From IMG/VR virus record IMGVR_UViG_3300045988_160579: a DNA stretch of 63,236 nucleotides. The stretch is one strand, 5' to 3'. The stretch is from a virus. Below are positions 163-63,236 of this stretch, piece after piece. The translations under genes and the position numbers were made by a program. Each line of letters begins with the position of its first letter. The stretch's first letter is position 1. The notes under the pieces are model-generated. The model ran no database searches, was not told the DNA's origin, and was given only the letters and a program-made list of their open reading frames with translations.

Positions 163-248
163 ATGGTCGGATTATGGTCGGAAAATTCCCGGATTAGAAT
201 CTGATTATAAGTAAATTACAATAGGATGTTAAAAAAATAATGGTCGAA
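163..248 (+). promoter_or_regulatory. three direct ATGGTCGRA repeats, candidate integrase arm-type sites (left arm)
   Basis: atggtcgga at 163-171 and 174-182 (11-bp phasing); atggtcgaa at 240-248. Confidence 0.45.
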
Positions 249-278
249 AACGCCATTTTTACCCTAAAAACACAAATT

Positions 279-1463
279 ATGGCTACATTAACATTGGTAA
301 TAGTTCCCGCAAAAAGGTTATCAGACGGGACACACAAAATAAGAATTCGAGTCGCACACAACTCTGAAACGAGATTCATCACCACGGATATAGTGGTAAG
401 GGAAAACGAGTTTAAGAACGGTAAAATAGTACACCGTCCAGACAAGGATTTTCTCAATACAAAATTACAACAGCTATACAACCTTTATTTCAAGCGATAC
501 ATGGAACTGGACTACCCTGATTCGCTCACGTGCACGCAATTAGTCAAAATGATAACTAACCCGTTAAACGGAGAAAAGCATCGTAAGTTCGAGGATATCG
601 TGGATGAATATCTGTCCCAAATAGATGAAGAAGAACGTACCAAGACATACAAGCTCTATCGGCTGGCCACAAACAAGTTTATGCAATTCATCGGGAACGG
701 TTCTCTCATGGAACATATTACCCCTATCAGAATGAACCAGTACATATCATGGCTCAAAAAGACAAAGCTGTCAAGCACCACAATCAACATCTACATAACC
801 CTGTTAAAGGTTATCATTAACTATGCTATAAAGATGAGATACGTCACCTACGATATCGACCCTTTCATCACAGCCAGAATTCCATCAGCCCAAAAGAGGG
901 AAACGCAAATCACCGTCGAAGAACTCAAGACAATCAGGGACGCCAATTTAGAGCATTACAATCTCAACGTCACACGGGACATTTTCATGCTTACTTATTA
1001 TCTTGCCGGCATGAACCTAGTAGACATACTAGCATACGATTTCCGGACGGATGAAATAAACTACATCCGAAAAAAGACCAAAAACACCAAAGAGGGGGAC
1101 TCCCTGATTTCCTTTTCCATTCCCGAAGAAGCAAAGCCCATTATAAAAAAGTATATGAAAAAGAATACAGGGAAAATTATATTCGGGAAATACAAGAACT
1201 ATACCTCCTGCTATAACCTGCTGGCTAGGAAAATCAGTCAATTAGGCAAGGTGGCAGGAATCAGGCATAAATTCACCCTATATTCAGCCCGCAAATCTTT
1301 CGTCCAACATGGATATGACCTGGGAATTCCTCTTAGTACACTGGAATACTGTATCGGGCAGTCAATGAAAGAAGATAGACCAATCTTCAACTATGTCACA
1401 ATAATGAGAAAACACGCTGATAAAGCAATCAGGGAAATACTTGACAACTTGAAAAATGAATAA
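279..1463 (+). CDS. int: tyrosine recombinase / phage integrase
   Basis: ORF 240..1463; likely start is ATG 279 (MATLTLVIV...). N-terminal arm-binding-like region, SAM-like core (INIYITLLKVIINYA) and C-terminal catalytic region (LYSARKSFVQHG ... NYV). Adjacent to the att repeat. Confidence 0.85.
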   Translation: MATLTLVIVPAKRLSDGTHKIRIRVAHNSETRFITTDIVVRENEFKNGKIVHRPDKDFLNTKLQQLYNLYFKRYMELDYPDSLTCTQLVKMITNPLNGEKHRKFEDIVDEYLSQIDEEERTKTYKLYRLATNKFMQFIGNGSLMEHITPIRMNQYISWLKKTKLSSTTINIYITLLKVIINYAIKMRYVTYDIDPFITARIPSAQKRETQITVEELKTIRDANLEHYNLNVTRDIFMLTYYLAGMNLVDILAYDFRTDEINYIRKKTKNTKEGDSLISFSIPEEAKPIIKKYMKKNTGKIIFGKYKNYTSCYNLLARKISQLGKVAGIRHKFTLYSARKSFVQHGYDLGIPLSTLEYCIGQSMKEDRPIFNYVTIMRKHADKAIREILDNLKNE

Positions 1464-1772: not shown

Positions 1773-2222
1773 ATGATAGATTGGAATGATTGCCTGCCAA
1801 CAAAAGAAATGCAGGCTGACTTTGAAAGATTCAAAGAACTAAAAACCACAGAAGAAAAAGAAGCTTTCAAAAAGGAAATGCAGGATAAATATAATAAACT
1901 ACCGGAAGCCCAAAAGGAAGCCTACAAAAAAGCATCTGAAGCTGGGCTAAAAGCAACGGTAAATGCCTGCAATGATTATATAGAAAGAGCGGAAGAAGCC
2001 ATATTACGTGATAAACTTGGAGAATTGCCCGAAGCAATCTCATTCAGTTATATTGCAAAGAAATATTTTGGTAAAAGTAGAAACTGGCTATATCAGCGTA
2101 TTAACGGGAATATAGTCAACGGGAAAAAGGCTCGCTTTACTGACAATGAACTCAAAACGTTCCTGAACGCTTTGAACGATGTTAGCGAAATGATTCATCA
2201 GACATCATTAAAAATCAGTTAA
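1773..2222 (+). CDS. hypothetical protein, DUF5053-like putative DNA-binding C-terminus
   Basis: 149 aa. ...SFSYIAKKYFGKSRNWLYQRINGNIVNGKKARFTDNELKTF resembles a Bacteroides-specific family. A strong terminator follows. Confidence 0.5.
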   Translation: MIDWNDCLPTKEMQADFERFKELKTTEEKEAFKKEMQDKYNKLPEAQKEAYKKASEAGLKATVNACNDYIERAEEAILRDKLGELPEAISFSYIAKKYFGKSRNWLYQRINGNIVNGKKARFTDNELKTFLNALNDVSEMIHQTSLKIS

Positions 2223-2394: not shown

Positions 2395-3507
2395 CTATAG
2401 TATATTATTTTCTGAAAGAATCACATTGTACAATTTTTCCAACAAATCACTAGACATATATTCGTTTTTGTTTGCCTTTTGAAACAAGACTGGTGGAAAA
2501 TGTATATATTCCATTCGGCGGGATACAGATTCATCATTTATCCCCTCTTTCAATCGCACATCTTTCAACTCAAGGTTATTGAACAAATCGGCATTCAAGT
2601 ATAACCTTCGTGTCTCAATTGTTGATAATGAACTAAATGAGTTAAAAAACAACAACACAAGTTCATACTTTGACAGTTGCGCTCGAAATATATTCGAATA
2701 TTTTAGGGGCGAAGTGAATTCCGAAGTCATTTCCAAAATATAATAAGCATTCCTAAAATATGTGCCAAGTTGATTTTTATATGGGGCAAAACAATGATCA
2801 GCGGCTTTAGCACAAGCTTCAGCTATGGGCTTGAAATTATTCTGTTCAAAATAGATCTTAATCGCATTTAAACAGAGGTAATCATAAGTGTTTATATGTA
2901 CAGGATAAATATTAATCTTTCCTTTATGTATTCCAAATTCATGCTCTGAATAAATGTTGTTAATGGCAGCATTCAATTGACCATATATAAACATCCATTG
3001 CTCTTTAGACATATTTTTGGGAATAACCCTCCTTACAAATTCCTCTTTGGAAAAATTTTCAGGAATACCTCTTCTTATTTCCAAATAGAAAATATGGTAT
3101 AACTCTACATAAATCTGTCGATAAGTTTTATCTGGTGTACAAAACTCATTGTAAGGAGTTATTTTCCATTCACATTGTTTTTCATCATATACCCAATCTA
3201 TTCTTTTCACTTGCAAGGCATCCCGATATGAAATAAAAATCCTAAGCAACTCAAAAAAGACAGCTCTATCCTCGCTATTCAAGAATTGCTGTTTATTCTG
3301 TCTTAATGTAAATAAAACTCCGACGAATGCTATTAATCCTGCAATCGCTCCTAATAGACTTCCAAACTCACCCCAGTCGGTCTGTTTATCCGCAAACTTA
3401 CCTTTGGTCTGAATAAAATAGAAAGCTAAAATGACTATTATAATTAATATGAGGATGACAGTTCCCCAAACGAGCCAACCTTTTACATTTCTTTTCATTC
3501 TTATCAT
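2395..3507 (-). CDS. membrane protein, AbiC-like putative abortive-infection protein
   Basis: 370 aa. Two N-terminal TM helices followed by LRQNKQQF...AVFFELLRIF, the pattern I associate with the putative AbiC family. Isolated gene with AT-rich flanks. Confidence 0.45.
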   Translation of the reverse strand: MIRMKRNVKGWLVWGTVILILIIIVILAFYFIQTKGKFADKQTDWGEFGSLLGAIAGLIAFVGVLFTLRQNKQQFLNSEDRAVFFELLRIFISYRDALQVKRIDWVYDEKQCEWKITPYNEFCTPDKTYRQIYVELYHIFYLEIRRGIPENFSKEEFVRRVIPKNMSKEQWMFIYGQLNAAINNIYSEHEFGIHKGKINIYPVHINTYDYLCLNAIKIYFEQNNFKPIAEACAKAADHCFAPYKNQLGTYFRNAYYILEMTSEFTSPLKYSNIFRAQLSKYELVLLFFNSFSSLSTIETRRLYLNADLFNNLELKDVRLKEGINDESVSRRMEYIHFPPVLFQKANKNEYMSSDLLEKLYNVILSENNIL

Positions 3508-6427: not shown

Positions 6428-6717
6428 AAAGTTACTACCAATATTGAAAACACAGTAATCAGCCCAGGAAGCAAAACAGTAGCTAATGCGTCAAGCCAAT
6501 CAAAGATGAACCCGCACTTTTTCTGAATGTACTCAACCACTATTGCGGCAATGGCGGTTGTCGTTAAAGAAACAATAGCAGATTTACAGAAATCAATGCC
6601 TAATAGAAGGAAACAGAAAACAAGCATTACAACAAAGACGAACATCCCGGCTTTGACGTGTGCCGGTCGGTTAGATTGCAAAAGCCAATCATACAATACT
6701 TTTATACCCATACTCAT
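6424..6717 (-). CDS. holin/antiholin-like small membrane protein
   Basis: 97 aa with three hydrophobic segments. First gene of the lysis cassette, with an ATGA-type overlap. Confidence 0.5.
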   Translation of the reverse strand: MSMGIKVLYDWLLQSNRPAHVKAGMFVFVVMLVFCFLLLGIDFCKSAIVSLTTTAIAAIVVEYIQKKCGFIFDWLDALATVLLPGLITVFSILVVTL

Positions 6718-6861
6718 AGCGTTTAATTATTAATAAAATATTCTGTATGGAACAAATGTATTGAGTATAATAACGAGTTTTACAAAAATGGAAAATCTTG
6801 GAAATCAATTCTATGATAAATATCTATAAAACAAGACATTATAATTTTCACTTTTTCCATA

Positions 6862-6891
6862 AATAAAAAAGGGATGCTTGATAAGCACCCC
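6862..6891 (-). terminator. rho-independent terminator ending the fibre/DGR operon
   Basis: gggatgctt (6871-6879) pairs with aagcacccc (6883-6891), one mismatch. The T-run on the minus strand is plus-strand aaaaaa at 6865-6870. Confidence 0.6.
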
Positions 6892-6914
6892 TAAACAACC
6901 AACAGATTGAACTA

Positions 6915-7193
6915 TTAATCCGTAAACATATACACGGAAAGATCAACCTTTTCTATTTCGTCTGAAATTGTATCTCCATACATTGTTAGACACACCCGAT
7001 AACGGTCAATACTTCTTTGAATCTGTTGCAAGGTAGGTTTCTCGGGATATTCCGAACTGGCAAAAGTTACCAGTTCTTCACCATTCTCACTGGTACCAAC
7101 CACCCGGAAGTGATGACGTACAATCCAAGTTCCGTCCGGCTGTTGCTCGATAGGCTTAGCAATCCCACGCGGTAAGATATTTTTTTGATCCAT
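6915..7193 (-). CDS. hypothetical protein (92 aa) overlapping the RT 3' end
   Basis: ORF track. Overlaps the RT ORF by 38 nt. Confidence 0.45.
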   Translation of the reverse strand: MDQKNILPRGIAKPIEQQPDGTWIVRHHFRVVGTSENGEELVTFASSEYPEKPTLQQIQRSIDRYRVCLTMYGDTISDEIEKVDLSVYMFTD

Positions 7194-8577
7194 GTTTTTT
7201 GATATGTTTAATTAGTTGTTTTCTATGGTTATATTTATTCTTCAATACAAACTTTTCAAAATGTCCTTCGATATAAACATATTCCCACCATTCAGGAAGC
7301 AACATCGCTGCAATTTTACGGCGGATATTGTACGTTGCAAAGTGTTTCATCAGGCCATAATAAGAGTTCATCGTACTCACAAACTTCTCAACATACGCTT
7401 CTGCAAATCCATTTTCAGCTATTCTATTAAATTTCCTGACAGCGTTATATGTGTTACCAACCACCCTGTTAGATACATAAATTCTACCAGGCAAAATGAA
7501 CGCCCCTACAAACAAGACTCCTTTTTTATAATGCTGAAGATACAGTTTGCGTGGATGCAACCGTAAAAGGAGTTGTTCTTTCAGGAAACCATCAAGAAGA
7601 TGGACTTTGGACAATATTTCTTCCGGTGATTTCACTACGATACAAAAGTCATCAACAAAGCGTACATAATATATGAATCCCAGTATTTCCATCACGAAAT
7701 AATCATATACAGACGCCAGAAAGTTGGCTATGAGTTGCGACGGCAGGTTCCCGATAGCCACTCCCCTGTCAGGGTCATTATGAAACAGACTTTTATTACT
7801 GGGAAGTTTGTCCCACATGGAGACGGGAGAGCGTCTGATACACTTATTTTGTGGACAATGAAAGATAGTAACGGCTAGAAGGTAAAGCAGACATTCAATA
7901 TCATCGCCTTTATAATTGTCCCTTACGAATATGTTCAGCATTTCCCATACCAACGATTTCGAGATAGACATGAAGAAACTGAACAGGTCATCTTTGAAAA
8001 TGTACGCATCGGCAGTATAATTCTCACTGACCTCGACTATCATGTTATTCAGATAGTGCACGGCAGACAGACATCCCTCACCTTTCCGGCAGTTCTTCGA
8101 GACGTTCCCTTGTTCCCGAAAACGTTCCTCTAAAATCGGCTCGATACGAAGAGCGATCCAGTGATGGACAACACGATCAATGAAAGCGGCGGCAAAAACC
8201 TCCCGATATACCGGGTAAGTCCGTATGAATACTTTTGAAAAGTCCGGTACATATTCACCGTAAATAATAGAATACCATAGCCGCACCAATGCAGACTGAT
8301 AATCATTATAAAACTCAACACAATCCGTACTCGTTCTTTTCTGTCTGGCACAATCTTCGGATGCTTCGAAAATACTGCTAAGAAGTATGTCATAGATTAT
8401 ATTACCTGTTGCGGCGAGGGGACGAACCCGGTTCGCGTTCTGGCGGTTGTTCGTGTTGACGTTGCCGTTGTTGAAGTTCACGTTCCAACTGCTGGAAGCC
8501 GTTGCATCCGCTATCTTAGTCTTTCCCGGCTCATCACCGGGGGGATGCCCAATAAATAATTCTAATTGCTCACTCAT
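7156..8577 (-). CDS. DGR reverse transcriptase (ORF includes the TR in frame at its 5' end)
   Basis: 473 aa. DGR-type motif AIGNLPSQLIANF, catalytic YYVRFVDDFCIV, and N-terminal RT motif AAAFIDRVVHHW. Only one in-frame ATG (8577) lies upstream of the RT domain. Confidence 0.9.
   Translation of the reverse strand: MSEQLELFIGHPPGDEPGKTKIADATASSSWNVNFNNGNVNTNNRQNANRVRPLAATGNIIYDILLSSIFEASEDCARQKRTSTDCVEFYNDYQSALVRLWYSIIYGEYVPDFSKVFIRTYPVYREVFAAAFIDRVVHHWIALRIEPILEERFREQGNVSKNCRKGEGCLSAVHYLNNMIVEVSENYTADAYIFKDDLFSFFMSISKSLVWEMLNIFVRDNYKGDDIECLLYLLAVTIFHCPQNKCIRRSPVSMWDKLPSNKSLFHNDPDRGVAIGNLPSQLIANFLASVYDYFVMEILGFIYYVRFVDDFCIVVKSPEEILSKVHLLDGFLKEQLLLRLHPRKLYLQHYKKGVLFVGAFILPGRIYVSNRVVGNTYNAVRKFNRIAENGFAEAYVEKFVSTMNSYYGLMKHFATYNIRRKIAAMLLPEWWEYVYIEGHFEKFVLKNKYNHRKQLIKHIKKHGSKKYLTAWDC
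8411..8499 (-). repeat. DGR template repeat (TR)
   Basis: 89-nt ungapped match to 9168..9256 with 12 differences, all at TR adenines (coding strand). Encodes Asn-rich NVNFNNGNVNTNNRQNANRV. Confidence 0.9.
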
Positions 8578-8591
8578 AATCCCCTTGGCGA

Positions 8592-8999
8592 TTATGACTC
8601 CGGCTTTGCGACTTGTTGCGATCCGTTAGCTTTTTGCCGTTGGAGATCTGCAACCGTTTTTTTGTACCAACCGGTACTTTGCTTACCGATGCTCTCTGCA
8701 AGCAGACAGATTTCGGCAGTTTGAGTCAGGCTGGTCAAATGTCGTTCTTCACACACTCTTAGCAGTAATTTCAATGCATCAAACTCACACAAAAACTTCA
8801 TCAGATAATCTGCACGATGCTCAAGGTTCATATCTGTATTTGCATAACGGATATATTCGCAACAATGAACGGCAAGCATCATCAACTCCGTACCAAATTC
8901 ATACCGGAACGCCTTGGGGAATTGTTGCCGGGCATCAATGATAAGGTTCAGAAGCTTATACATCGAATTTGATATAGGAAGGTCTTGTGTAAGTGCCAT
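8592..8999 (-). CDS. avd: Avd-like accessory variability determinant (four-helix-bundle protein)
   Basis: 135 aa. QFPKAFRYEFGTEL...IRYAN...YLMKFLCEFDALKLLLRVCEE...IGKQSTGWYKK fits the four-helix-bundle/Avd family. Located between the target gene and the TR. Confidence 0.75.
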   Translation of the reverse strand: MALTQDLPISNSMYKLLNLIIDARQQFPKAFRYEFGTELMMLAVHCCEYIRYANTDMNLEHRADYLMKFLCEFDALKLLLRVCEERHLTSLTQTAEICLLAESIGKQSTGWYKKTVADLQRQKANGSQQVAKPES

Positions 9000-9093
9000 G
9001 TTAATTTTTTAATATTTTAATGTATGTATTAGAGGGCGCAAAGTTAATAACTGTAAAGCAATTAACACAATTTTAGCTCAAAAAAGTGAAACT

Positions 9094-9117
9094 AAAAAGC
9101 CCCTACCGGGGCTTTTA
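9094..9117. terminator. symmetric hairpin between the VR gene and avd (terminator and/or DGR target-recognition hairpin)
   Basis: aaagcccc (9096-9103) pairs with ggggcttt (9108-9115) around a 4-nt loop, with an A-run and a T-run on either side. Sits 51 nt downstream of the VR end. Confidence 0.55.
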
Positions 9118-9145
9118 TTTAGCTAACTCTCTAAGGGATAAATAA

Positions 9146-9994
9146 TTAAAGGGATAAAGTGTTTATTGCGGCGAGGGGACGAACCCGGTACGCGCCCTGG
9201 CGGCTGTTCGTGCCGACGATGCCGTAGGAGAAGTACACGCTCCAACTGCTGGAAGCGTCATATTCGGTACTAGACCAATACCAGTCGTTTGTAAATATAT
9301 TTTGATTGCCAAACATAGAAGTTATGAGCTCATTGATTTCGGTTTTATACTTGGCCATAAGCATAAGTTCACCCAATGCGGGCAGGTTCCACACGGTTGT
9401 ATCTTCAATTCCGTCAGATTCAAGCGTACAGGCTTTATAGGCTCTGGCAACTTCGGCGGCAGGGGCGCCGACAGTTCCCTGGGTGTCCTTGACGCCTGCA
9501 AGGGTTTCTATTATAACATCGGTATTTTCCTTGCCGTCGAAGGTATCATAGAGTCCTTGGTTACCACTGCCGTAGTTTTTCAGGCCGCGTAGGTCGGTAC
9601 CGTAGCCACCCCATTTGAACGTTTTATTGCCGCCTGCGTCAACGCAGTCGCTTTTGGCGATAATGAACTGGTGGCATTCGGCGCGAAGTCGGATGCCGAT
9701 ACGGATATACTTGGAGCGATTATTCGCGCTCATGGAGTTCCATTCGGAAGCCGTGAAAAAGACTTGTTCACCGTCTTCAATCCGGAGCGTAGCCAAAGAA
9801 AGGTCAAGAAGCGTACCTGACCATTGCATATATTTGGCGATGTCGCTTGCGGGGGTGTTTTCATTCACGGTTGTAAAACCTATTGATTTTAAGGCTTCTA
9901 TCTGGTCTTGTTTATTCAAGCGCAGAAGCATGGCGTTGGCGATATTTTTATCCATTTTATTGTATAATATTAAGTTAATACTATTCGGAAGCAA
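9146..9994 (-). CDS. DGR target protein, fibre-tip protein with DUF1566/C-type-lectin-like C-terminus
   Basis: 282 aa. C-terminus WYWSSTEYDASSSWSVYFSYGIVGTNSRQGAYRVRPLAA carries the VR. Lies directly downstream of the giant fibre gene. Confidence 0.85.
   Translation of the reverse strand: MLPNSINLILYNKMDKNIANAMLLRLNKQDQIEALKSIGFTTVNENTPASDIAKYMQWSGTLLDLSLATLRIEDGEQVFFTASEWNSMSANNRSKYIRIGIRLRAECHQFIIAKSDCVDAGGNKTFKWGGYGTDLRGLKNYGSGNQGLYDTFDGKENTDVIIETLAGVKDTQGTVGAPAAEVARAYKACTLESDGIEDTTVWNLPALGELMLMAKYKTEINELITSMFGNQNIFTNDWYWSSTEYDASSSWSVYFSYGIVGTNSRQGAYRVRPLAAINTLSL
9168..9256 (-). repeat. DGR variable repeat (VR)
   Basis: See TR. Located in the last ~35 codons of ORF 9146..9994. The 3' 21 nt (ccgggttcgtcccctcgccgc on the coding strand) are A-free and identical to the TR (IMH-like). 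Confidence 0.9.
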
Positions 9995-10769
9995 CAGCTC
10001 TCACATGAAGAAGGGCTGAATTTTTGTTTTGATTCGTAATACGCCCGGTATTCAGTTCGAACGCCCAGGCGGAGTTAGTATCCCAAATTGTTGATGACCA
10101 GTAGTATTTATCAGTCATCAGCATACTGTCACTACTCCAAAAGGTACGCATCATCTCATTGATTTTATCGCGGTAGCGGTACATCAGAAGCATTTGGCCG
10201 GATGAAGGAAGGAACCAGTTGGATTCATCCTCGATACCGTCACTTTCCAAAGTGTAGGCACGGTATGCACGGGCGGCTTCGGCAGCCGGCGCACCGATTA
10301 CACCGCTATTGTTTTGGTCTTTCAGGCCGGTGATAATCAGGTCGGTATCTTCCTCACCCGTGAAGCAGCCGTACATGGCACCCAGTCCTTTTTGGTTCAG
10401 GCCGTCTATGGCTTTACCCTGACCGCCCCAATAGAAGGTAGTAGTCATATCGGCATTATAGCACTCCTGGGCGGCGATTACGAAGGAGTGTCCATGGGCA
10501 CGGATACGAAGCCCGCGTTTGATATACAGTTGCTTATTAGCGAGCGTAAGGGAGTTCCATTCGGCAGCAGTAAAGTATGCCTTGGAGTTATCCGAAATAC
10601 GATTACAGGCAAGATGCAGATCAAGCAGACCGGCGGCCCACTTGATACGTTGTCCAAATTCAGATGCGCGGGAATTCTCGGTGACATCCGAGAAGCCCAC
10701 GGCGTTCAGTGCTGCCACTTGTGCCTGTTTATTCAAGCGAAGCAGCGTTGCGCTTTGTTCATTCGTCAT
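9981..10769 (-). CDS. paralogous fibre-tip protein (DUF1566-like) without a recognisable VR
   Basis: 262 aa, collinear with the target protein (LLRLNKQ.Q..AL...GF ... APAAE.ARAY.A.TLESDGIED). C-terminus YYWSSTIWDTNSAWAFELNTGRITNQNKNSALLHVRAV has no nucleotide match to the TR. Confidence 0.8.
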   Translation of the reverse strand: MTNEQSATLLRLNKQAQVAALNAVGFSDVTENSRASEFGQRIKWAAGLLDLHLACNRISDNSKAYFTAAEWNSLTLANKQLYIKRGLRIRAHGHSFVIAAQECYNADMTTTFYWGGQGKAIDGLNQKGLGAMYGCFTGEEDTDLIITGLKDQNNSGVIGAPAAEAARAYRAYTLESDGIEDESNWFLPSSGQMLLMYRYRDKINEMMRTFWSSDSMLMTDKYYWSSTIWDTNSAWAFELNTGRITNQNKNSALLHVRAVASE

Positions 10770-22936: not shown

Positions 22937-25900
22937 TTATTTCAGTTTAGATAACTTATACAGTTCAAATTCACGGTTAGAAGCATCTTGGCGTTGCATT
23001 TTTAGACTCTTCATCAAAAGGAAATTTGTTCTATCAACCCTTTTTTCTAATCGGGAATAATCATTGAAAACAATGGTGTCACCGGAAGAAGATGCAAAAT
23101 ATGTCGGTGAAAATGTGGGAAAGTCCCAATCCGGTATATCAAAATTAGAGATATCTACCTTATCAACATCAGGAAAGACTTGCGCACCTTTAGGAATATC
23201 AACTAAAGTTGGAGTATCAGGAGTAATCCATGCTTTTCCAGAATACATGATAACTTCATGTTTACCGGCATCACCAACTAAAGCGGCACCGCCGGGATGC
23301 CTATCATTACCTTGAGTACCGTCTGCATAGGAAGGAATAGGAGTTGCAAGAATAGTTGCAACCTGAATTGCTCCCATGGCACCAATAACAATAGATAAAG
23401 GAATATTCGGTAAAGCTTCAGTTATTGCCAGTGCAGTGGCTATTCCAGCTTGAGCGACACTAGTCGCCTTTTCCCAAATGGCTTGTTTACGTGCCATTTC
23501 TTGTTTTTGTTTTTCAAGTTCAGCATTCTTAGCTTCAGTTCTTTCCTTGGCCGCACGCTTACGAGCTTCTGCTTCTTCTTCGGAGATTGCTCCCGAATCA
23601 GCTAGATTCTGTATTCGTTCTACATCCTTATCATATTTCTCATCATTAGCTTCCTGCTCTTCTTCTATTTTCTGAATCTGACCATCATAAATAGTAGAGA
23701 CTAGATCACCAATAGCACCCACTGCTTGAGATGCAGTTTGAAGCCATTTTTTCAGATTCCTCTGACGTTCTTTCTGTGCTTTCTCATCCGCTTTAGTAAC
23801 TTTATTGATAGCATCTATTTCCGCTTCTGCTTCTTGCTGGGAAAGGTCCGCTTTCAATTTCCGTAACTGCTCTGCAATCTTTGCCCTATCCTCTGCACTC
23901 AAATTTTCGTTTCGAAGTTCCAACTCCAACGCATCAATTGCAGCTTCGGTTGTTTTACGTACATAATCTAATTTTAACTGATACTCAAGTTCTGCATACT
24001 CTTGCTGGGTTATTTCCTTAGAAGCTAACTGTTTTTTAAGAGCAAGCGTATCCATAACATATGCAGCATCCCGGATTTCCTGCTCATGCGCTGCATTCTC
24101 TGCTATTAATTGCACCTGATCGGATGCATGTCTTTCGTAAAGTTCTTGTTTCTTTTTTGCATATTTGTCGTCAATGAGAAAAACATCTTCACCTGTTTTC
24201 TCTGCTGCATCAATTTCTGCTTCACGTTGCAATTCCAACTGGTGCAATTTCAAATCAAGTTCTTCCTGGGACCCCTTTTTTACAACAGCAAGAGCGTTCT
24301 CAACATCCTTCTTCTCACGATCAGAATTATACTTAATAGTAAACTCATCTAGCTTTTCCTGCATTTCCTTAGCTAAATTCTGACGTGTAGCAATTTCCTC
24401 TTTGCTATTACCCTTGACGGCAGCAATCTTCTTCGAGTAAGCAACACCAATTTTAGCAAGTTCTTTCTCCAGTCCCTCATCCATAAGAGCTAGTTCTGAC
24501 TCCTGATAAGTTTCATGAATTTTCAGCTTCTCTTTGAGAGCTTTTTCCTGTTCACGTTTTTCTTTATCAGTAAGTACCTTTACTGAATTCCCCTTTGTAC
24601 CACCATTCTCTTTCAAATCAATGGTATCAAGTTGTTCAATAAGAGATTCTGTTATTGATGAAATAGCCTTCTTACCTGCAGCAGCTTTAGTTGCAACATC
24701 GATCTCATCTTTAATGACATTATTTGTGCGTCTCCATGAGGTCAGAATTGTAAAGAATCCCCTGTCTTTCAATTCTCCTTCCAATTTCTTACGATTATCT
24801 ATAGCTAATTGATAATCACTATTTTCATATTCCAAACGAGACTTCAATGTTTCAATATAATCTTCTTTAGCCTTTTTGGCCGCCTCATCAGCAGACATTC
24901 CTGAATTTATATATTCTTTATACAACCTCTGCATATTTCTAGCATTCTTCTCCAAAATATCAGATTTCATCATCTCTTTCTGTGCAAAGGCAACAGCCTT
25001 ATTGTCTGCTTCATCTTGTAATTCAGAATACCCCTTCAGCTGTGTAGCAACATTCCTCAACCCTCTTGCCAGAAAATCCAGGACATCCTTCATTATACCC
25101 TTGGAATCATAGAAGGATAACATAAATGCTTCCCACGCAGAAGAAAGTCCCGCAATAGAACCTTTAACATTGTTACTCATGGTATCTGCCATATCTGTTA
25201 GTTCTTTATCCACGCCTGTAATTTGGTCCCTCAATGGAACAATTTTATCAGAAGCTGTAAGAAAAGCATTGAAAGCGGCGACACTCCGTTTATCTGTTAA
25301 TTCTAAAGTTGTATTTAAATCTACACCTTGTTCTTTCAGTTTCTTTAAGCCAACAACCAACTCAGGCAATGTTTTTACAGGTTCTCCAAGTGCTTTAGCT
25401 AATTTGCCATTGCCATCAGCCAAATTCAACAAAATATTACGAGTGGCTGTTGCAGACATTGAAGCATCAAAACCTGCATCTGCAAGCTTTCCTAACAATG
25501 CCAAAGTATCTTCTATTTGGAAATTGAATGCCTTTGCAACCGGACCAACAATAGGCAAGGCAGTAGCTAGGTAAGAAAAAGATAAGGCACTCTTTGATGT
25601 AGCAACAGCCATAGCAGATACATAACGTTCTGTTTCTTTAGTGCTAGCATTAAACATTCTCAATGCAGCACCAGACAATGCGGCTGCATCCGAAAGTTCA
25701 GCTCCAGTTGCTTGTGCGAATCGTAAGATGGCACCTGTCGAATCTAATATTTCACGACGTGTAAAACCTAATTTGGCTAATTCTATCTGTAGTTCAGTAG
25801 CTTGTGCAGCTGTATATTTCGTTGTTGCTCCTAATTGACGCGCATCAGTGGTTAATTCTTTAATATTGTCAGCCGTCGTACCTAAAATCGCTGCAAGTTT

Positions 25901-26842
25901 GCTATTAGCAAATTCAAATTCAACAATGGAACCAACACCTTCACGCAGTTGTGTAAACATCTTAACAATCCCTCCAGCAACAGCTTGTGCACCAATATAT
26001 CCAGCAGCCCATCCTTTCAATCCTGCACTAACTTGGCTTAGCCCAGGAGCCATCTCCGTTTTAAGCATCCTTCCTGCATTCCGGGCAATAATACCCATAT
26101 TCTGCATGGACTTATTACCGTTCTGTATCTCAACCCATGCAGCCTTCACTTCTTCCCGGTATGCACCAATTGTCATTTTCTGTTGACTATATCGATCGGA
26201 ATTTCGCTTTATGTAATCAGTGTTGATTCCAATAGTAGAATTAAGACGGGCAAGTGTACGAATATAGTTTTCATCCGTATCTTTCAAAACATCAACAGCC
26301 TTTTGCAGCTGCTTATTCATTTCCTTTGCTTGTGAACGGCTATGTACTTCCTGATTAGTCAAGGTAATAGCAGTTCTGATAAGTTTTAAACGTTCTTCTT
26401 CAGATAAAACAGCTTTCTTACGAGTAGTATTACCGGCATTCTGCGCTTTTGTCAAGTTAGCTTCCGCTTTAGCAGCCTTTTCCAAGGACGCAGCATTATC
26501 CGAGTTTGCCTTGGTTAGTTTCTTCAATTCAGCAGCAGATAATTTCTCTACATTTAGCTTTTCCTCTATCTTCTTACTGACAGTTTGAGTTATTTCAGAC
26601 TGTTTTCTAAGAGCCTCGGTTAATTCAGCAGATGCAGAACCAGCCGTTTTTGCTTGAGTATTATAAAGATTACTCAACTTTTCAAGATCAGCAACGCCTT
26701 CTACATTTAGTTTCAAACCTTTTGCTAATTCTTTGGCCGCATTAACATAATCAGCCCTCACACGCTCAATAGTATTATCAAGCTCCACCAATTTCTGCAA
26801 ATCGTTCTCATCAACGAAATCTTTTAATTTTAAATCTGCCAT
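22937..26842 (-). CDS. tail tape measure protein
   Basis: 1301 aa with long coiled coils. TP901-type core: LAAILGTTADNIKELTTDARQLGATTKYTAAQATELQIELAKLGF. Confidence 0.9.
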   Translation of the reverse strand: MADLKLKDFVDENDLQKLVELDNTIERVRADYVNAAKELAKGLKLNVEGVADLEKLSNLYNTQAKTAGSASAELTEALRKQSEITQTVSKKIEEKLNVEKLSAAELKKLTKANSDNAASLEKAAKAEANLTKAQNAGNTTRKKAVLSEEERLKLIRTAITLTNQEVHSRSQAKEMNKQLQKAVDVLKDTDENYIRTLARLNSTIGINTDYIKRNSDRYSQQKMTIGAYREEVKAAWVEIQNGNKSMQNMGIIARNAGRMLKTEMAPGLSQVSAGLKGWAAGYIGAQAVAGGIVKMFTQLREGVGSIVEFEFANSKLAAILGTTADNIKELTTDARQLGATTKYTAAQATELQIELAKLGFTRREILDSTGAILRFAQATGAELSDAAALSGAALRMFNASTKETERYVSAMAVATSKSALSFSYLATALPIVGPVAKAFNFQIEDTLALLGKLADAGFDASMSATATRNILLNLADGNGKLAKALGEPVKTLPELVVGLKKLKEQGVDLNTTLELTDKRSVAAFNAFLTASDKIVPLRDQITGVDKELTDMADTMSNNVKGSIAGLSSAWEAFMLSFYDSKGIMKDVLDFLARGLRNVATQLKGYSELQDEADNKAVAFAQKEMMKSDILEKNARNMQRLYKEYINSGMSADEAAKKAKEDYIETLKSRLEYENSDYQLAIDNRKKLEGELKDRGFFTILTSWRRTNNVIKDEIDVATKAAAGKKAISSITESLIEQLDTIDLKENGGTKGNSVKVLTDKEKREQEKALKEKLKIHETYQESELALMDEGLEKELAKIGVAYSKKIAAVKGNSKEEIATRQNLAKEMQEKLDEFTIKYNSDREKKDVENALAVVKKGSQEELDLKLHQLELQREAEIDAAEKTGEDVFLIDDKYAKKKQELYERHASDQVQLIAENAAHEQEIRDAAYVMDTLALKKQLASKEITQQEYAELEYQLKLDYVRKTTEAAIDALELELRNENLSAEDRAKIAEQLRKLKADLSQQEAEAEIDAINKVTKADEKAQKERQRNLKKWLQTASQAVGAIGDLVSTIYDGQIQKIEEEQEANDEKYDKDVERIQNLADSGAISEEEAEARKRAAKERTEAKNAELEKQKQEMARKQAIWEKATSVAQAGIATALAITEALPNIPLSIVIGAMGAIQVATILATPIPSYADGTQGNDRHPGGAALVGDAGKHEVIMYSGKAWITPDTPTLVDIPKGAQVFPDVDKVDISNFDIPDWDFPTFSPTYFASSSGDTIVFNDYSRLEKRVDRTNFLLMKSLKMQRQDASNREFELYKLSKLK

Positions 26843-42241: not shown

Positions 42242-42351
42242 AGTTCTATTTGTTATTTACATGTTTGACTTTTAATTATTTACTCCTATAAAGGTAATCA
42301 TTATTGACAAGTTTAACAAACAGAAACTTCGCCATTTTAACGCCATTTTCA
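42242..42351 (-). promoter_or_regulatory. repeated promoter/operator cassette, copy 1
   Basis: Minus-strand reading: AAAATGGCG x2 (42349-42341, 42338-42330), TTTG-N20-TACCTTTA, then the AAAAGTCAAAC box (42273-42263), 20 nt before the ATG. Confidence 0.55.
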
Positions 42352-45395: not shown

Positions 45396-45971
45396 CTACT
45401 TAGCCGTGGTTTCATCATTAAATAACTTTGGTTGACTGGGTTGAACCAAATCATCGAATAAACCAGGAACACGAGGTTGTAACGCCTTGTATTCTTCCTG
45501 AAAGAATTCTTCTTTGGTTCTCCCATGTTTTTTACCCTTTCGTGTATGTACATCGAAAGTGTAATCTGGAATAGGAATAGGATAACGCCTGACATCATTT
45601 ATCCACTTTTCTATATCAATATCCTTTCTATCATAGATGAAGTTTTGCAAATGATCCGCATCACGATTCTTTCTACATTCACAAAGGAGAATGACAGCTT
45701 TACTCACAAATATCCTCCCTTTGGGTTCAGTAGCAACCTTGTTTACCAGCTCATGTCCCTGCCATAATGCTTCTATCTCTTTCGTAATGATTCCAAAACA
45801 GTCTTCAGCACTAATGGTAAACAAACGCTTCCACACATAGTCGCGGTACCCACTCGCCCAAAGTTCCAATGCAAAAAAGCCGGCTACCCCGGTGTCGGCT
45901 CGTCTAATGGCTTTCTGCATTGCAGAACTCACCTCAAAGAAATCATATCCGCAAATTGTTCTAATAATCAT
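45396..45971 (-). CDS. hypothetical protein with MgsA C-terminal-like helical motif
   Basis: 191 aa. FFEVSSAMQKAIRRADTGVAGFFALELWASGY. Confidence 0.4.
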   Translation of the reverse strand: MIIRTICGYDFFEVSSAMQKAIRRADTGVAGFFALELWASGYRDYVWKRLFTISAEDCFGIITKEIEALWQGHELVNKVATEPKGRIFVSKAVILLCECRKNRDADHLQNFIYDRKDIDIEKWINDVRRYPIPIPDYTFDVHTRKGKKHGRTKEEFFQEEYKALQPRVPGLFDDLVQPSQPKLFNDETTAK

Positions 45972-46075
45972 AATTCTAATTTAATGGTTTGACTTTTAAT
46001 TGATTACATCAGTAAAATTAGCTAAAAAAGACGAATATGGCAAACAGAATGGACACCATTTAAGCGCCTTTTTTA
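45972..46075 (-). promoter_or_regulatory. repeated promoter/operator cassette, copy 2 (degenerate upstream half)
   Basis: aattctaatttaatGGTTTGACTTTTAAT..ATTACATCAGTAAA is identical or near-identical to copy 4. TTTG-N20-TAATTTTA. The AAAATGGCG repeats are degenerate. Confidence 0.5.
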
Positions 46076-49148: not shown

Positions 49149-50867
49149 CTAGGCTTCCTCTGTGTTATCGTTATTTAGCTCTTTCAGTCTTTCTTTGAGC
49201 TTCTTTTCTTTCTTATCATATGAATCCGCAAGTTTCTTAGAGAGCGCTTTGAAATCATCCGGATATTGTTCTGCAAAAAGGATTTTCTGACACTTTTGCA
49301 AATAGGAGTAGAAATTCACATTATTCGATGATAAGCATTCAGCAATAAAGGCTCTATACCATTGGTGTCGGTCAGCTTGGTTGTTTTTGACATAATTTAC
49401 AAAATCACTCTCACCATTCCATTTTTTCAAATTCAGTTTTTCAAGATAAGTACTGCTACAACCGCTAAGAACCAGCACATCAAAAACAAGTTGTTCATTT
49501 TCAGAGAATTCTTTTGTTCTCTGATAATATGTTTTCTCTTGCGCCCACTTACGCATTTCTTCAGCAGACTTCTCCTTGACTATATCCTTCGCTCTTTTTA
49601 ATTGGGCGTTTATTTTTTCCCTTTCTATCTCTTTTAGATCGGCAACGGCGGAAGTAGAGGAAGCCGTTTCTTTTCTAACATAATAGAAACTAACGTTAAA
49701 TTCGGGAGAATAATGTCCAAAAAATGAAAGACAACGATAAACTTCTCCATCTTCAAGCATTTTCAAAGTGCGTTCATCATCTTCTGAATACCAGCACTTA
49801 CATCTAAAGATTTCATCAGGATCAACTATTTCAAATCCAAGTTGTTTAACAGCTTCCAAAGTTTTTTCATAGAAAACCTTTCTATCTTCTCCCCAATATG
49901 TATCAGGACGTCTAGCGATAATTACTGTTTTTCCAAATGAAAGAGGTTCGCCAACTTTAACAAGATGTTCATATTCTAGTTGAATTTTCCGCGTCACATA
50001 AGCAATTTGTTTTTTCTCATAGCAAGCAGCATTGATACATCTAGCATCCTTACTATTCATTTCATAGAACAAACAACCATGATTACACGTATTATTCTCA
50101 CATTGAGAACATGATTTAATATCAGTATTTTCCCAATTATCGGAATCATCTTTAATCCAAGGTGCGTTACCAAGCTCCATGAAAGAATTACTCACAAATT
50201 CTCGAATCATAGCAGTAGTACATTGTTCTTCCTCCTCCTCATGAAACTCTTTTTGAGTATCTTCATCCAATTTAGAAAGAATCATAGCACCGGACAATGG
50301 TATATCTCCATTTCTTACCCGCTCTTTTAGTTCAGGAATAAGAGAATTCAATTTAATACGGTCAAATACAAACCGGGTAGACTTTCCTATTTTAAGAGCG
50401 ATATCTTCCAAAGTTCGTCCTTTTTCAGCCAACTGCGCAAAGGCAAAAGCTTCTTCGATGGGATCAACATCTTTTCTTTGAAGATTCTCGGTAATCATCG
50501 CTTCAAAAGCCTCATCATCTGTCATTTCTCTGACAATGCAGGAAATCGCTTGGAATTGTTCTGATTTCTTGCGATGTGCCTTGATTTTAGCAACATTCTC
50601 TTTATCTTCCTTCTCTTTCAATAGTGATACAGCACGGAAGCGGCGCTCACCACATACAATTTCATACGAACAGGGAATTGTTGTCACATCACCAGTCTCC
50701 AAGTTGGTCACATCCTCGGATTTGGCAACTCGAACAGTGATAGGCTGTAATAAGCCTTGTTTCTCAATATTACTTGCAAGCTCTTGAAGAGCTACTTCAT
50801 CAAAAGTCTTTCTCGGATTCAAAGGAGAAGGACTGATAAGGTCAATTCTAATGTTTTGTACTTCCAT
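49149..50867 (-). CDS. large ParB-family protein
   Basis: 572 aa. N-terminal IDLISPSPLNPRK...GLLQPITVR...VCGERRFRAV. Cys-rich middle region. Confidence 0.7.
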   Translation of the reverse strand: MEVQNIRIDLISPSPLNPRKTFDEVALQELASNIEKQGLLQPITVRVAKSEDVTNLETGDVTTIPCSYEIVCGERRFRAVSLLKEKEDKENVAKIKAHRKKSEQFQAISCIVREMTDDEAFEAMITENLQRKDVDPIEEAFAFAQLAEKGRTLEDIALKIGKSTRFVFDRIKLNSLIPELKERVRNGDIPLSGAMILSKLDEDTQKEFHEEEEEQCTTAMIREFVSNSFMELGNAPWIKDDSDNWENTDIKSCSQCENNTCNHGCLFYEMNSKDARCINAACYEKKQIAYVTRKIQLEYEHLVKVGEPLSFGKTVIIARRPDTYWGEDRKVFYEKTLEAVKQLGFEIVDPDEIFRCKCWYSEDDERTLKMLEDGEVYRCLSFFGHYSPEFNVSFYYVRKETASSTSAVADLKEIEREKINAQLKRAKDIVKEKSAEEMRKWAQEKTYYQRTKEFSENEQLVFDVLVLSGCSSTYLEKLNLKKWNGESDFVNYVKNNQADRHQWYRAFIAECLSSNNVNFYSYLQKCQKILFAEQYPDDFKALSKKLADSYDKKEKKLKERLKELNNDNTEEA

Positions 50868-50971
50868 AATTTAATTATATTGGTTTGACTTTTAATTCAT
50901 TACATCAGTAAAGTTATCGTAAAATAACAAGTTATGCAAACAGAAACTTCGCCATTTTAACGCCATTTTCA
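50868..50971 (-). promoter_or_regulatory. repeated promoter/operator cassette, copy 3
   Basis: AAAATGGCG x2 (50969-50961, 50958-50950), TTTG-N20-TAACTTTA, and the AAAAGTCAAACC box (50893-50882), 14 nt before the ATG. Confidence 0.55.
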
Positions 50972-56946: not shown

Positions 56947-57725
56947 TTTCTAGGAGGATACGTTTTCTGCATGTCAATAGTTATGTTTCTGAACTCCTTA
57001 TTATTGTGAAGTTCGGGATGTTCAGTCCAAACTCTCTCAAGCTCTTCGCGGCTTTTAACACCAGTCATTTGTTTAATTGCACGATCCAGGTCTACACCAG
57101 TATATACTTTGCCCGAAGCGTTTGAAGCAGAAACATTGGGAGCATATACTTTTTCCTTTGTATTACCATAAGCAAAACGAACGCGGTTTTTATTGTCCAC
57201 AATAACAAGTAAAATAATCTCCTTTTGCTCGTTATAACCAATCTCTTTTACACTGAATTTGGTGTATAGAGCAGGAGAACCTGTTTTGCTCTGATATATT
57301 TCATTTTTCTCAAGTGGAATCCAAATGAAAGGACCCGTATAAAGTTCACGCCCAATTCCCCAGTTAAATCCTGCACGTTTAAAGGCGTCCGAAGCCTGCC
57401 CTTTCTCTTTTTCTGTGCTAGATTCTGTCCCAACATCCTGTTTACTCACCCATTCCTTCTTTTCATTATCCCAAATGGACAACGTACAGAATAGATTCCC
57501 ATTAACGACATCATGGTGCCGTTTCCAGTTCATTTCTCCGAACACTTCATCAAGTATTCTCATGTCTACTCGAGCATCCTTGTATAATAGCAAGGAGCAG
57601 CCCGAACCGTCCGGTTTCATAGTACCAACCCTACATTCAATTTCAGAAGCTAGAAGCGGTCTGATAGAATTTTTCTTCTTCTCTTCATTCTGAACCGTTG
57701 ATACAGTGTTTTTTCTCGCTGTCAT
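56943..57725 (-). CDS. Rad52/Sak-like single-strand annealing protein
   Basis: 260 aa. MRILDEVFGEMNWKRHHD...GQASDAFKRAGFNWGIGRELY. Confidence 0.6.
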   Translation of the reverse strand: MTARKNTVSTVQNEEKKKNSIRPLLASEIECRVGTMKPDGSGCSLLLYKDARVDMRILDEVFGEMNWKRHHDVVNGNLFCTLSIWDNEKKEWVSKQDVGTESSTEKEKGQASDAFKRAGFNWGIGRELYTGPFIWIPLEKNEIYQSKTGSPALYTKFSVKEIGYNEQKEIILLVIVDNKNRVRFAYGNTKEKVYAPNVSASNASGKVYTGVDLDRAIKQMTGVKSREELERVWTEHPELHNNKEFRNITIDMQKTYPPRN

Positions 57726-57829
57726 AATTCTAATTTAATGGTTTGACTTTTAGCTCATTACATCAGTAAAGGTAATCGTTATTGACAAGTTTAGCAAACA
57801 GAAACTTCGCCATTTTAACGCCATTTTCA
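57726..57829 (-). promoter_or_regulatory. repeated promoter/operator cassette, copy 4
   Basis: AAAATGGCG x2 (57827-57819, 57816-57808), TTTG (57798-57795), N20, TACCTTTA (57774-57767), and the AAAAGTCAAACC box (57751-57740), 14 nt before the ATG. Confidence 0.55.
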
Positions 57830-58537: not shown

Positions 58538-58629
58538 AGGTCGTAGCCAGACGCTTCCGGCTACATTGATTGTATATATAATGCAAATATATTTTCACCC
58601 TCACGGGTTACTTAACTCTGATTGAGTTG

Positions 58630-58700
58630 AGCCGGGAAACGGATTCGAACCGCTGACCTCATGTAGAAACATGCGCTCTGACCAACTGGGCTATCCCGGC
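58630..58700 (-). tRNA. tRNA-like RNA T4 (71 nt; Arg-UCU-like) with an anticodon arm 3 nt too short
   Basis: Acceptor GCCGGGA/TCCCGGC; D arm GCCC-AGTTGGTCA-GAGC; variable loop AGGTC; T arm AGCGG-TTCGAAT-CCGTT. The anticodon arm is only 14 nt (CATGT-TTCT-ACATG, or CATG-TTTCTA-CATG). Confidence 0.45.
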
Positions 58701-59225: not shown

Positions 59226-59456
59226 TTATGCAATTCTGGTTACTATAAACTGCATATTTTTTACATCTGACTTTGTTTTCCAAGCCATTCCTTCAGCTTT
59301 TTCTTTATAAAGCCGAGCATTCAATGTATTAGTTACAGACGGTTTCTGAACGATAGGAAATACTTCTATTGCACCAACATCCATACTCCGTAATACATCA
59401 ATTACGTTACGTCTCTGAATATCCTTTTCCATACAATCTAATTTTAAATTAAACAT
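59226..59456 (-). CDS. hypothetical protein (76 aa)
   Basis: ORF track. Starts 3 nt after the 3' end of the tRNA-shaped RNA T5. Confidence 0.4.
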   Translation of the reverse strand: MFNLKLDCMEKDIQRRNVIDVLRSMDVGAIEVFPIVQKPSVTNTLNARLYKEKAEGMAWKTKSDVKNMQFIVTRIA

Positions 59457-59458
59457 TG

Positions 59459-59592
59459 AAGCGATGAGCGGATTCGAACCGCCGACCTCTGCTTGTGGTG
59501 CTCTTCCGTTAAGCTAAGAGTATTTCTTGAGAGACTCGAACTCTCAACCATCCACCACACACAGCGCTCTAACCTGCCTGAGCTACATCACC
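59459..59592 (-). ncRNA. 134-nt tRNA-shaped RNA T5 with a 12-bp helix plus two hairpins replacing the anticodon loop
   Basis: GGTGATG-TA-GCTC-AGGCAGGTTA-GAGC-G-CTGTGTGTGGTG-[GATGG TTGAGAG-TTCGAGT-CTCTCAA GAAATA CTCTT-AGCTTAACGG-AAGAG]-CACCACAAGCAG-AGGTC-GGCGG-TTCGAAT-CCGCT-CATCGCT-T. Confidence 0.45.
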
Positions 59593-63213: not shown

Positions 63214-63236
63214 GTCTAGTTTAGTTTTTGTGTTGA
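63214..63236. repeat. 23-bp terminal direct repeat, right copy
   Basis: Identical to 1..23. Confidence 0.85.

Follow-up and report, generated by a model that had tools for sequence, protein, structure and literature searches.

A diversity-generating retroelement, very probably active, with a lectin-like target protein in a 63.2-kb temperate Bacteroides siphophage

The IMG/VR virus record IMGVR_UViG_3300045988_160579, a stretch of 63,236 nucleotides that is referred to here, at its full length, as the window, carries on its minus strand a diversity-generating retroelement (DGR), whose components are collected in Table 1. Read along that strand, a 2057-aa open reading frame (ORF) is followed by a 262-aa ORF, by the DGR target gene, by a 135-aa ORF (avd) and by a 473-aa ORF encoding a reverse transcriptase (RT). 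The variable repeat (VR) lies at the 3' end of the target gene, and the template repeat (TR) lies between avd and the region of RT homology. The original prediction, made from the DNA letters and their translations, had proposed the layout target-Avd-TR-RT; the order and the parts stand, with the correction that the TR is in frame inside the RT ORF and not in front of it.

Table 1. Coordinates of the DGR components, of candidate cis elements and of adjoining genes (positions in the window).
Feature	Coordinates	Strand	Description
TR	8409..8499	-	91 nt, 26 adenines, 10 AAC codons; identical in 136/146 related loci
VR	9166..9256	-	91 nt; codes for the last ~30 residues of the target; 12 mismatches to the TR
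IMH-like (initiation of mutagenic homing) constant 3' block of the VR, CCGGGTTCGTCCCCTCGCCGC + AA	9166..9188	-	23 nt; same sequence in the TR at 8409-8431
avd (accessory variability determinant), 135 aa	8592..8999	-	Pfam bAvd PF22296; PHROG 'Avd protein of DGR'
RT ORF, 473 aa	7156..8577	-	RT homology from ~residue 66 (~8380); TR in frame in the N-terminal extension
DGR target (variable protein), 269 aa	9146..9955	-	N-terminal helical/beta domain and C-terminal Lcl_C (DUF1566) lectin-like domain
Non-diversified target paralog, 262 aa, Lcl_C-like C-terminus	9981..10769	-	43% identity to the target; PHROG 4245, the family of the target
Tail-module protein, 2057 aa	10772..16945	-	Part of the tail module, downstream of the tape measure gene (22937-26842)
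Hairpin AAAAGCCCC-GGTA-GGGGCTTTT	9095..9116	-	49 nt past the VR; DNA fold z = -2.06
Small hairpin CCCGG-TGATGAG-CCGGG	8525..8541	-	Within a ~40-nt block directly 5' of the TR
92-aa ORF	6915..7193	-	Shares 38 nt with the 3' end of the RT gene; 49% identity in MT835523; no family match

Re-alignment of the two repeats agrees with what had been predicted. The TR (8411-8499) and the VR (9168-9256) align without gaps over 89 nt with 12 mismatches, and each mismatch corresponds to an adenine in the coding (minus) strand of the TR (alignment positions 23, 28, 29, 37, 46, 47, 52, 59, 61, 62, 68 and 73), that is, to 12 of its 24 adenines. From base composition alone, the probability that all 12 mismatches fall on adenines is ~1e-8. 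The repeat extends a further 2 nt (AA), to 8409 and 9166, which gives 91 nt with 26 adenines, and beyond this point the copies diverge. The peptides that had been quoted for the two copies (NVNFNNGNVNTNNRQNANRV in the TR, SVYFSYGIVGTNSRQGAYRV in the VR) are correct, and the 21-mer CCGGGTTCGTCCCCTCGCCGC is free of adenine and identical in both. When the window was searched with a pattern in which the TR adenines were masked, the matches were the TR and the VR alone (0 expected by chance), and the genome therefore contains a single VR; a second, remote VR of the kind present in the Bacuni phages was not found in the window with this pattern.

The products of avd and of the RT ORF have matches among known families. 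The 135-aa product matches Pfam bAvd PF22296 at 40.8 bits (cut-off 40) and the PHROG 'Avd protein of DGR' at 2.6e-35. The RT matches the PHROG reverse transcriptase at 2.8e-58, and its best match in the PDB is the Bordetella phage RT (bRT, 8ub7; 6.4e-11), where IGNLPSQLIANF (IGNLPSQ) aligns over IGSLTSQLFANV (IGSLTSQ) and FVDD over YMDD. The signature of the DGR clade of RTs, [I/L]GxxxSQ together with a YxDD-type box, is thus represented by IGNLPSQ and FVDD, both of which the original prediction had recognised. Among annotated phages, the nearest relatives of the RT are the DGR RTs of Bacteroides phages F1, F2 and F4, with 40-42% identity.

The position of the TR relative to the RT deserves separate description. 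The RT ORF opens with an ATG (8577) 14 nt past the avd stop codon and, as read from the sequence, zero in-frame ATG, GTG or TTG codons lie between the TR and the conserved N-terminus of the RT. An equal ORF of 473 aa, alignable without gaps, is present in MT835523, whose RT is 64% identical in protein. Since the TR-containing frame is kept in this relative and no ordinary start codon intervenes between TR and RT core, the RT may have a TR-encoded extension. The TR may accordingly be translated as the N-terminal part of the RT, which may act on its own mRNA; according to Wu et al. (2018, PMC5758913), TRs are untranslated.

The target protein combines an N-terminal domain of helices and strands with a C-terminal lectin-like domain. 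Pfam PF07603 (Lcl_C/DUF1566) matches it above the cut-off (4.8e-10) at residues 185-273 of the 282-aa ORF, the C-terminal ~90 residues, and the match spans the VR, as expected from the earlier placement of the VR within this domain. The start codon that had been assigned, TTG 9994, was not upheld: the closest homologs are 269 aa long and align with 100% query coverage from MDKNI..., which makes ATG 9955 the most likely start. As read from the sequence, the N-terminus, MDKNIANAMLLRLNKQ..., contains no signal peptide or lipobox. An AlphaFold2 model of the target (34 homologs) reached a predicted local distance difference test (pLDDT) score of 91.8. Its best match in Foldseek is 8q4e, the C-terminal domain of Legionella Lcl (E 3e-4), followed by 4eps (7.7e-4), which is BACOVA_04982, a fimbrial tip protein of Bacteroides ovatus; a sequence profile of the target family searched against the PDB returned 8q4e and 4eps again.

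The statement that the target gene directly follows the 2057-aa ORF was wrong, as a paralog of the target lies between the two. Its Lcl_C match in Pfam (3.8e-6, 27.6 bits) is under the cut-off of 34.9 bits. The paralog shows no match to the TR by the adenine-masked pattern and no hypervariability among relatives, and the arrangement of a target with a tandem paralog is present in MT835523 too.

We analyzed the natural variation of the repeats in relatives of the window. The adenine-masked pattern was found in 77 IMG/VR stretches, in 6 stretches of named or uncultured Bacteroides genomes and in 85 human-gut metagenome stretches. As such a search fixes the non-adenine bases by construction, variability was tested again free of this constraint in two ways, by blastn with the whole 3-kb region and by extraction of the repeats via their specific flanks. 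The original prediction had set as a test that variation be limited to the adenine-templated sites, and this is what we observed: in the 88 TR/VR pairs that share a contig, out of ~165 loci of the lineage, 905 differences lie at TR adenines and 10 elsewhere. The differences at adenine sites comprise 487 A>G, 304 A>T and 114 A>C. Mean minor-allele frequency in the relatives was 0.40 for the adenine-templated columns of the VR, 0.009 for its other columns and 0.006 for the TR.

The adenines are not used uniformly. Strong variation is found at 22 of them, all at codon position 1 or 2, while A7, A10 and A59 rarely vary and the final AA never does; this pattern marks the 5' and 3' bounds of mutagenesis. 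The recoded codons are ten AAC codons, one ACG and one weakly variable CAG, from which ~1e13 protein variants are possible. At the ten AAC codons of the VRs, Tyr (26%), Gly (19.5%), Asn (19%) and Ser (17%) lead; compared with what per-position base frequencies predict, there is an excess of Tyr and Gly, and Cys and Asp are ~15-25 times rarer. No stop codon occurs in 99 VRs. The residue bias together with the absence of stops indicates that the assembled VRs are selected variants. For the target protein, up to 29,189 distinct sequences are contained within single clusters at 90% identity.

Besides the full-length copies, 14 VRs have a length other than 91 nt (67-122 nt; loci L006, L028, L050, L059, L092, L099, L103, L111, L115, L136, L138, L150, L156 and L159), of which 4 are in-frame deletions and 10 are out of frame. 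These odd-length copies could have arisen as indels during homing, or could be assembly errors in a heterogeneous repeat.

Taken together, the DGR-type RT, the Avd protein, the adenine-specific TR/VR pair and the position of the VR at the C-terminus of the Lcl_C domain, with all parts intact, uphold the proposal of a complete DGR, and we hold with high confidence that this DGR is complete and active, its carrier being a temperate Bacteroides siphophage of 63.2 kb. The biochemical steps, proposed from homology to Bordetella phage BPP-1, would be as follows. The avd-TR-RT unit would be transcribed, and the RT, together with Avd, would copy the TR RNA to cDNA, misincorporating opposite template adenines. 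The cDNA would then replace the VR in the target gene, starting from the shared GC-rich 3' block, and the recoded residues would fall on the C-terminal Lcl_C/DUF1566 domain of a small tail-module protein. A TR that is constant in 136 of 146 loci, VRs that are nearly all different and near-identical genomes that differ in the VR would be in keeping with unidirectional, RT-dependent mutagenic retrohoming. Diversification is, judging from these sequences, ongoing in natural populations while the TR stays constant. By its position in the tail module, the target would sit on the tail tip and, by analogy with BPP-1 and the Bacuni phages, it would bind a surface receptor of Bacteroides, with diversification altering the host range.

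Several observations weigh against parts of this interpretation. Activity is read from differences between assemblies. Two of the family assignments fall under curated cut-offs, namely Avd against NCBIfam DivGenRetAVD (2e-8) and the RT against Pfam RVT_1. The 3' block does not distinguish donor from recipient, as IMH and IMH* are equal over 23 nt and the two copies, alike within the repeat, diverge only after it; past the VR, the sole inverted repeat is found at a distance of 49 nt, and it resembles a terminator. As to the target, homology to Mtd is undetectable, the other structural matches to C-type lectins (snake-venom C-type lectins) are weak (E ~1), no match supports a location in the virion, and no domain in Pfam, PHROG or NCBIfam ties the protein to tail structure. 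The 2057-aa protein upstream has no recognisable domain either (no Pfam, NCBIfam or PDB sequence match), and its designation as a fibre derives from gene position.

The alternative that survives best accepts a working DGR and questions the role of its target, which would be not a receptor-binding tail tip but a protein that binds another ligand (for example capsular polysaccharide, in an initial and reversible contact, or gut glycans such as mucin) or that lies outside the virion. This would agree with the missing link to tail structure and with the closest structural relatives of the target being bacterial adhesin domains (Lcl of Legionella and 4eps, the fimbrial tip protein of Bacteroides), as well as with the fixed paralog next door, since the phage may carry a constant binder beside an adaptable one. 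We nevertheless consider it unlikely, given that the target gene lies within the tail module, after the large tail protein and before lysis, that its N-terminus carries neither signal peptide nor lipobox, and that homologous VR differences go with different hosts in the Bacuni phages (Hedzet et al. 2021, PMC8143477).

Far less probable is that the cassette is a relic, in which old differences between TR and VR persist and diversification is over. The 12 adenine-site differences of the window cannot by themselves date the events, but the relatives can: in 29 pairs of contigs with 0-2 differences per 1,200 nt of flank, the VRs differ at 10-18 positions, the divergence of VR and flank is uncorrelated (r = -0.06), and 98 of 99 full-length VRs are distinct. 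Moreover, RT, avd and TR are intact and almost invariant in ~70 relatives. That the VR diversity arose without reverse transcription, by ordinary mutation under diversifying selection or by recombination with the paralog, can be dismissed almost entirely: receptor-binding tips are often under such selection and, 800 nt away, there is a paralog whose C-terminus is similar, but of 915 differences 905 coincide exactly with TR adenines, the adjacent non-adenine bases within these codons show no variation, the TR copy stays constant, and DNA similarity between paralog and VR is absent.

The TR of the window is canonical. Among the 146 TRs identified by their specific flanks, 10 are not; 2 of these carry single-base changes and 8 carry multi-base tracts in which adenines are replaced (L025, L036, L038, L052, L078, L145, L146 and L165). 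Seven of the eight tracts lie within the 3' half of the repeat (position 43 onward), and that of L038 begins at position 38. A VR on the same contig is available for seven of the eight (not for L038), and in all seven it has the identical bases. If real, the tract-bearing TRs could be products of VR-to-TR back-conversion or of cDNA self-homing, and either process would erode TR adenines and then fix the corresponding VR positions, a built-in route of decay for a DGR. Self-homing combined with faithful copying fits the subset relation but is disfavoured: by a count made from the sequences, only ~2 of the ~15 adenines still present within the shared tracts are further mutated in the VR, against ~45% expected (binomial P ~0.01). 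It is more likely that the mutated TRs stem from VR-to-TR gene conversion or from an assembly or polishing artefact; that 10 of the 14 odd-length VRs are out of frame indicates that assemblies of the repeat are error-prone. The joint reading for this lineage, a leaky separation of donor and recipient together with a translated TR, appears to us improbable.

The IMH-like block is invariant in 67 relatives except at position 9168, where one copy differs. Identical IMH and IMH* are known from some DGRs (Wu et al. 2018, PMC5758913). The hairpin past the VR has a stem extended by A/T pairs and is followed by a T run; it is not adjacent to the IMH and not purely GC. A GC-rich inverted repeat just downstream of the IMH is not universal, occurring in 34% of DGRs. 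Judging from these sequence features, the hairpin is most simply a putative intrinsic terminator of the structural operon, and with a terminator at this position avd-TR-RT would be its own transcription unit. It could also form a cruciform serving the DGR, by analogy with the stimulator of homing in BPP-1. The promoter scan used the sigma-70 consensus and is uninformative for Bacteroides; upstream of avd, at 9046, a TAnnTTTG (-7 type) motif offers a lead only.

The ~40-nt block directly 5' of the TR shows 2 differences per 39 nt relative to MT835523, even though the RT of that relative is only 64% identical in protein. Such conservation at the nucleotide level suggests a candidate cis-acting element of the DGR RNA. 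Scanning 6500-10500 against Rfam (E <= 1) returned no hit, and the predicted RNA fold of the avd-TR-RT junction (8230-8620) is no more stable than shuffled sequences (z = -0.30), for which reason we claim no global structure of the DGR RNA. In a Bacuni-like clade (L244-L246, L084), a different hairpin occupies a similar spot upstream of the TR, with two compensatory pairs among the four sequences, again a lead only.

In comparison with BPP-1 (mtd-avd-TR-brt), the element has the same order of target, avd, TR and RT, adenine-specific mutagenesis, a C-terminal VR in a lectin-fold protein encoded in the tail module, and a constant 3' block rich in GC; bRT is the best solved match of its RT. It differs in having a target of the Lcl_C/DUF1566 type with no detectable similarity to Mtd, IMH and IMH* that are equal within the repeat, and no GC-rich inverted repeat directly after the IMH. 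The spacer between the TR and the region of RT homology is almost nil here, in contrast to about 140 nt in BPP-1.

The closest characterised relatives are Bacuni_F1, F2 and F4 (MT635598; PMC8143477), which likewise have a Bacteroides host. Bacuni_F1 shares the gene order of DUF1566 target, Avd, TR, RT, small ORF, amidase and integrase/recombinase; in addition, the VR covers the last ~35 residues, the TR has many AAC codons, and the target can be modelled on 4EPS. The differences are as follows. The RTs are only ~40-42% identical, the genomes measure 40 kb there and 63 kb here, and there is no nucleotide similarity. The Bacuni phages have a second, remote VR, against one VR here, and their TR belongs to a small ORF of its own, overlapping the start of the RT, whereas here it is in frame in the RT ORF. 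The tandem non-diversified paralog of the target is a further feature of the present phage.

With regard to its target, the element belongs to the DUF1566/CLec2 class, which is well described and common in gut Bacteroides phages. As in the CLec2 or 'category d' targets (DUF1566, DUF823, Fib_succ_major; e.g. Legionella LdtA), the VR overlaps DUF1566/Lcl_C; the class accounts for 14% of DGRs (Wu et al. 2018, PMC5758913), and targets of the DUF1566 type are the commonest class in human microbiomes (Ye 2014, PMC4159848). The target also shows the structural match to 4EPS and Lcl by which these groups, including the 4EPS-like targets that DGRs have in gut Bacteroides (Ye 2014, PMC4159848; Macadangdang et al. 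2024, bioRxiv 10.1101/2024.11.15.621889), have been defined, and its source, too, is the human gut. It differs from the CLec2 and 4EPS-like targets in being short and phage-encoded and in lacking a lipoprotein signal and pilin domains. More than 1,100 Bacteroides DGRs have been catalogued, 70% of the 4EPS-like Bacteroides targets are prophage-encoded, and DGRs directed at proteins known or predicted to belong to the tail occur in 43% of inducible Bacteroidota prophage species (PMC12629997).

The element leaves the knowledge of DGRs unchanged. Its value is that of a very clean natural case of an active DGR, carried by a Bacteroides phage that is prevalent in the human gut, with variation restricted to templated adenines across hundreds of independent assemblies and displayed residues (Tyr, Gly, Ser, Asn) that point to selection for binding. 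Work on host range is feasible with cultured lysogens (B. xylanisolvens XB1A and B. acidifaciens DSM 15896); in the literature, we found no paper that mentions XB1A and DGRs together.

The surroundings of the DGR are those of a whole phage. Nucleotides 1-23 of the window are identical to nucleotides 63214-63236, and this terminal overlap, a sign of a circular or terminally redundant assembly, indicates a whole phage genome of 63,213 bp. The window is the complete ~63.2-kb genome of a temperate siphophage with a Bacteroides host, encoding an integrase, amidase, tape measure, capsid, portal and large terminase as well as a replication/recombination module. Prophage copies are present in B. xylanisolvens XB1A, B. 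acidifaciens DSM 15896, B. bouchesdurhonensis and B. congonensis, and B. ovatus has an annotated homolog of the 269-aa target. The DGR cassette gave zero megablast matches among 50,697 phage records, and for 19 kb of structural genes the sole match in the same records was a 4.6-kb unannotated faecal fragment; the phage is therefore without an isolated close relative.

Three further features of the genome were noted. A direct repeat of ~105 nt occurs in four copies at 67-85% identity (42247-42351, 45971-46075, 50867-50971 and 57725-57829), which are dispersed over the early/replication half of the genome and may be repeated regulatory regions. A tRNA-like gene, for which ARAGORN left the anticodon undetermined, lies at 58629-58700 (minus strand), and 829 nt off, at 59456-59489, is a second fragment similar to a tRNA T-arm. 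Finally, an AbiC-like abortive-infection gene (2395-3507, minus strand) and a DUF5053 gene (1773-2222, plus strand) adjoin the integrase gene (240-1463, plus strand), and probably represent prophage-borne defence cargo.

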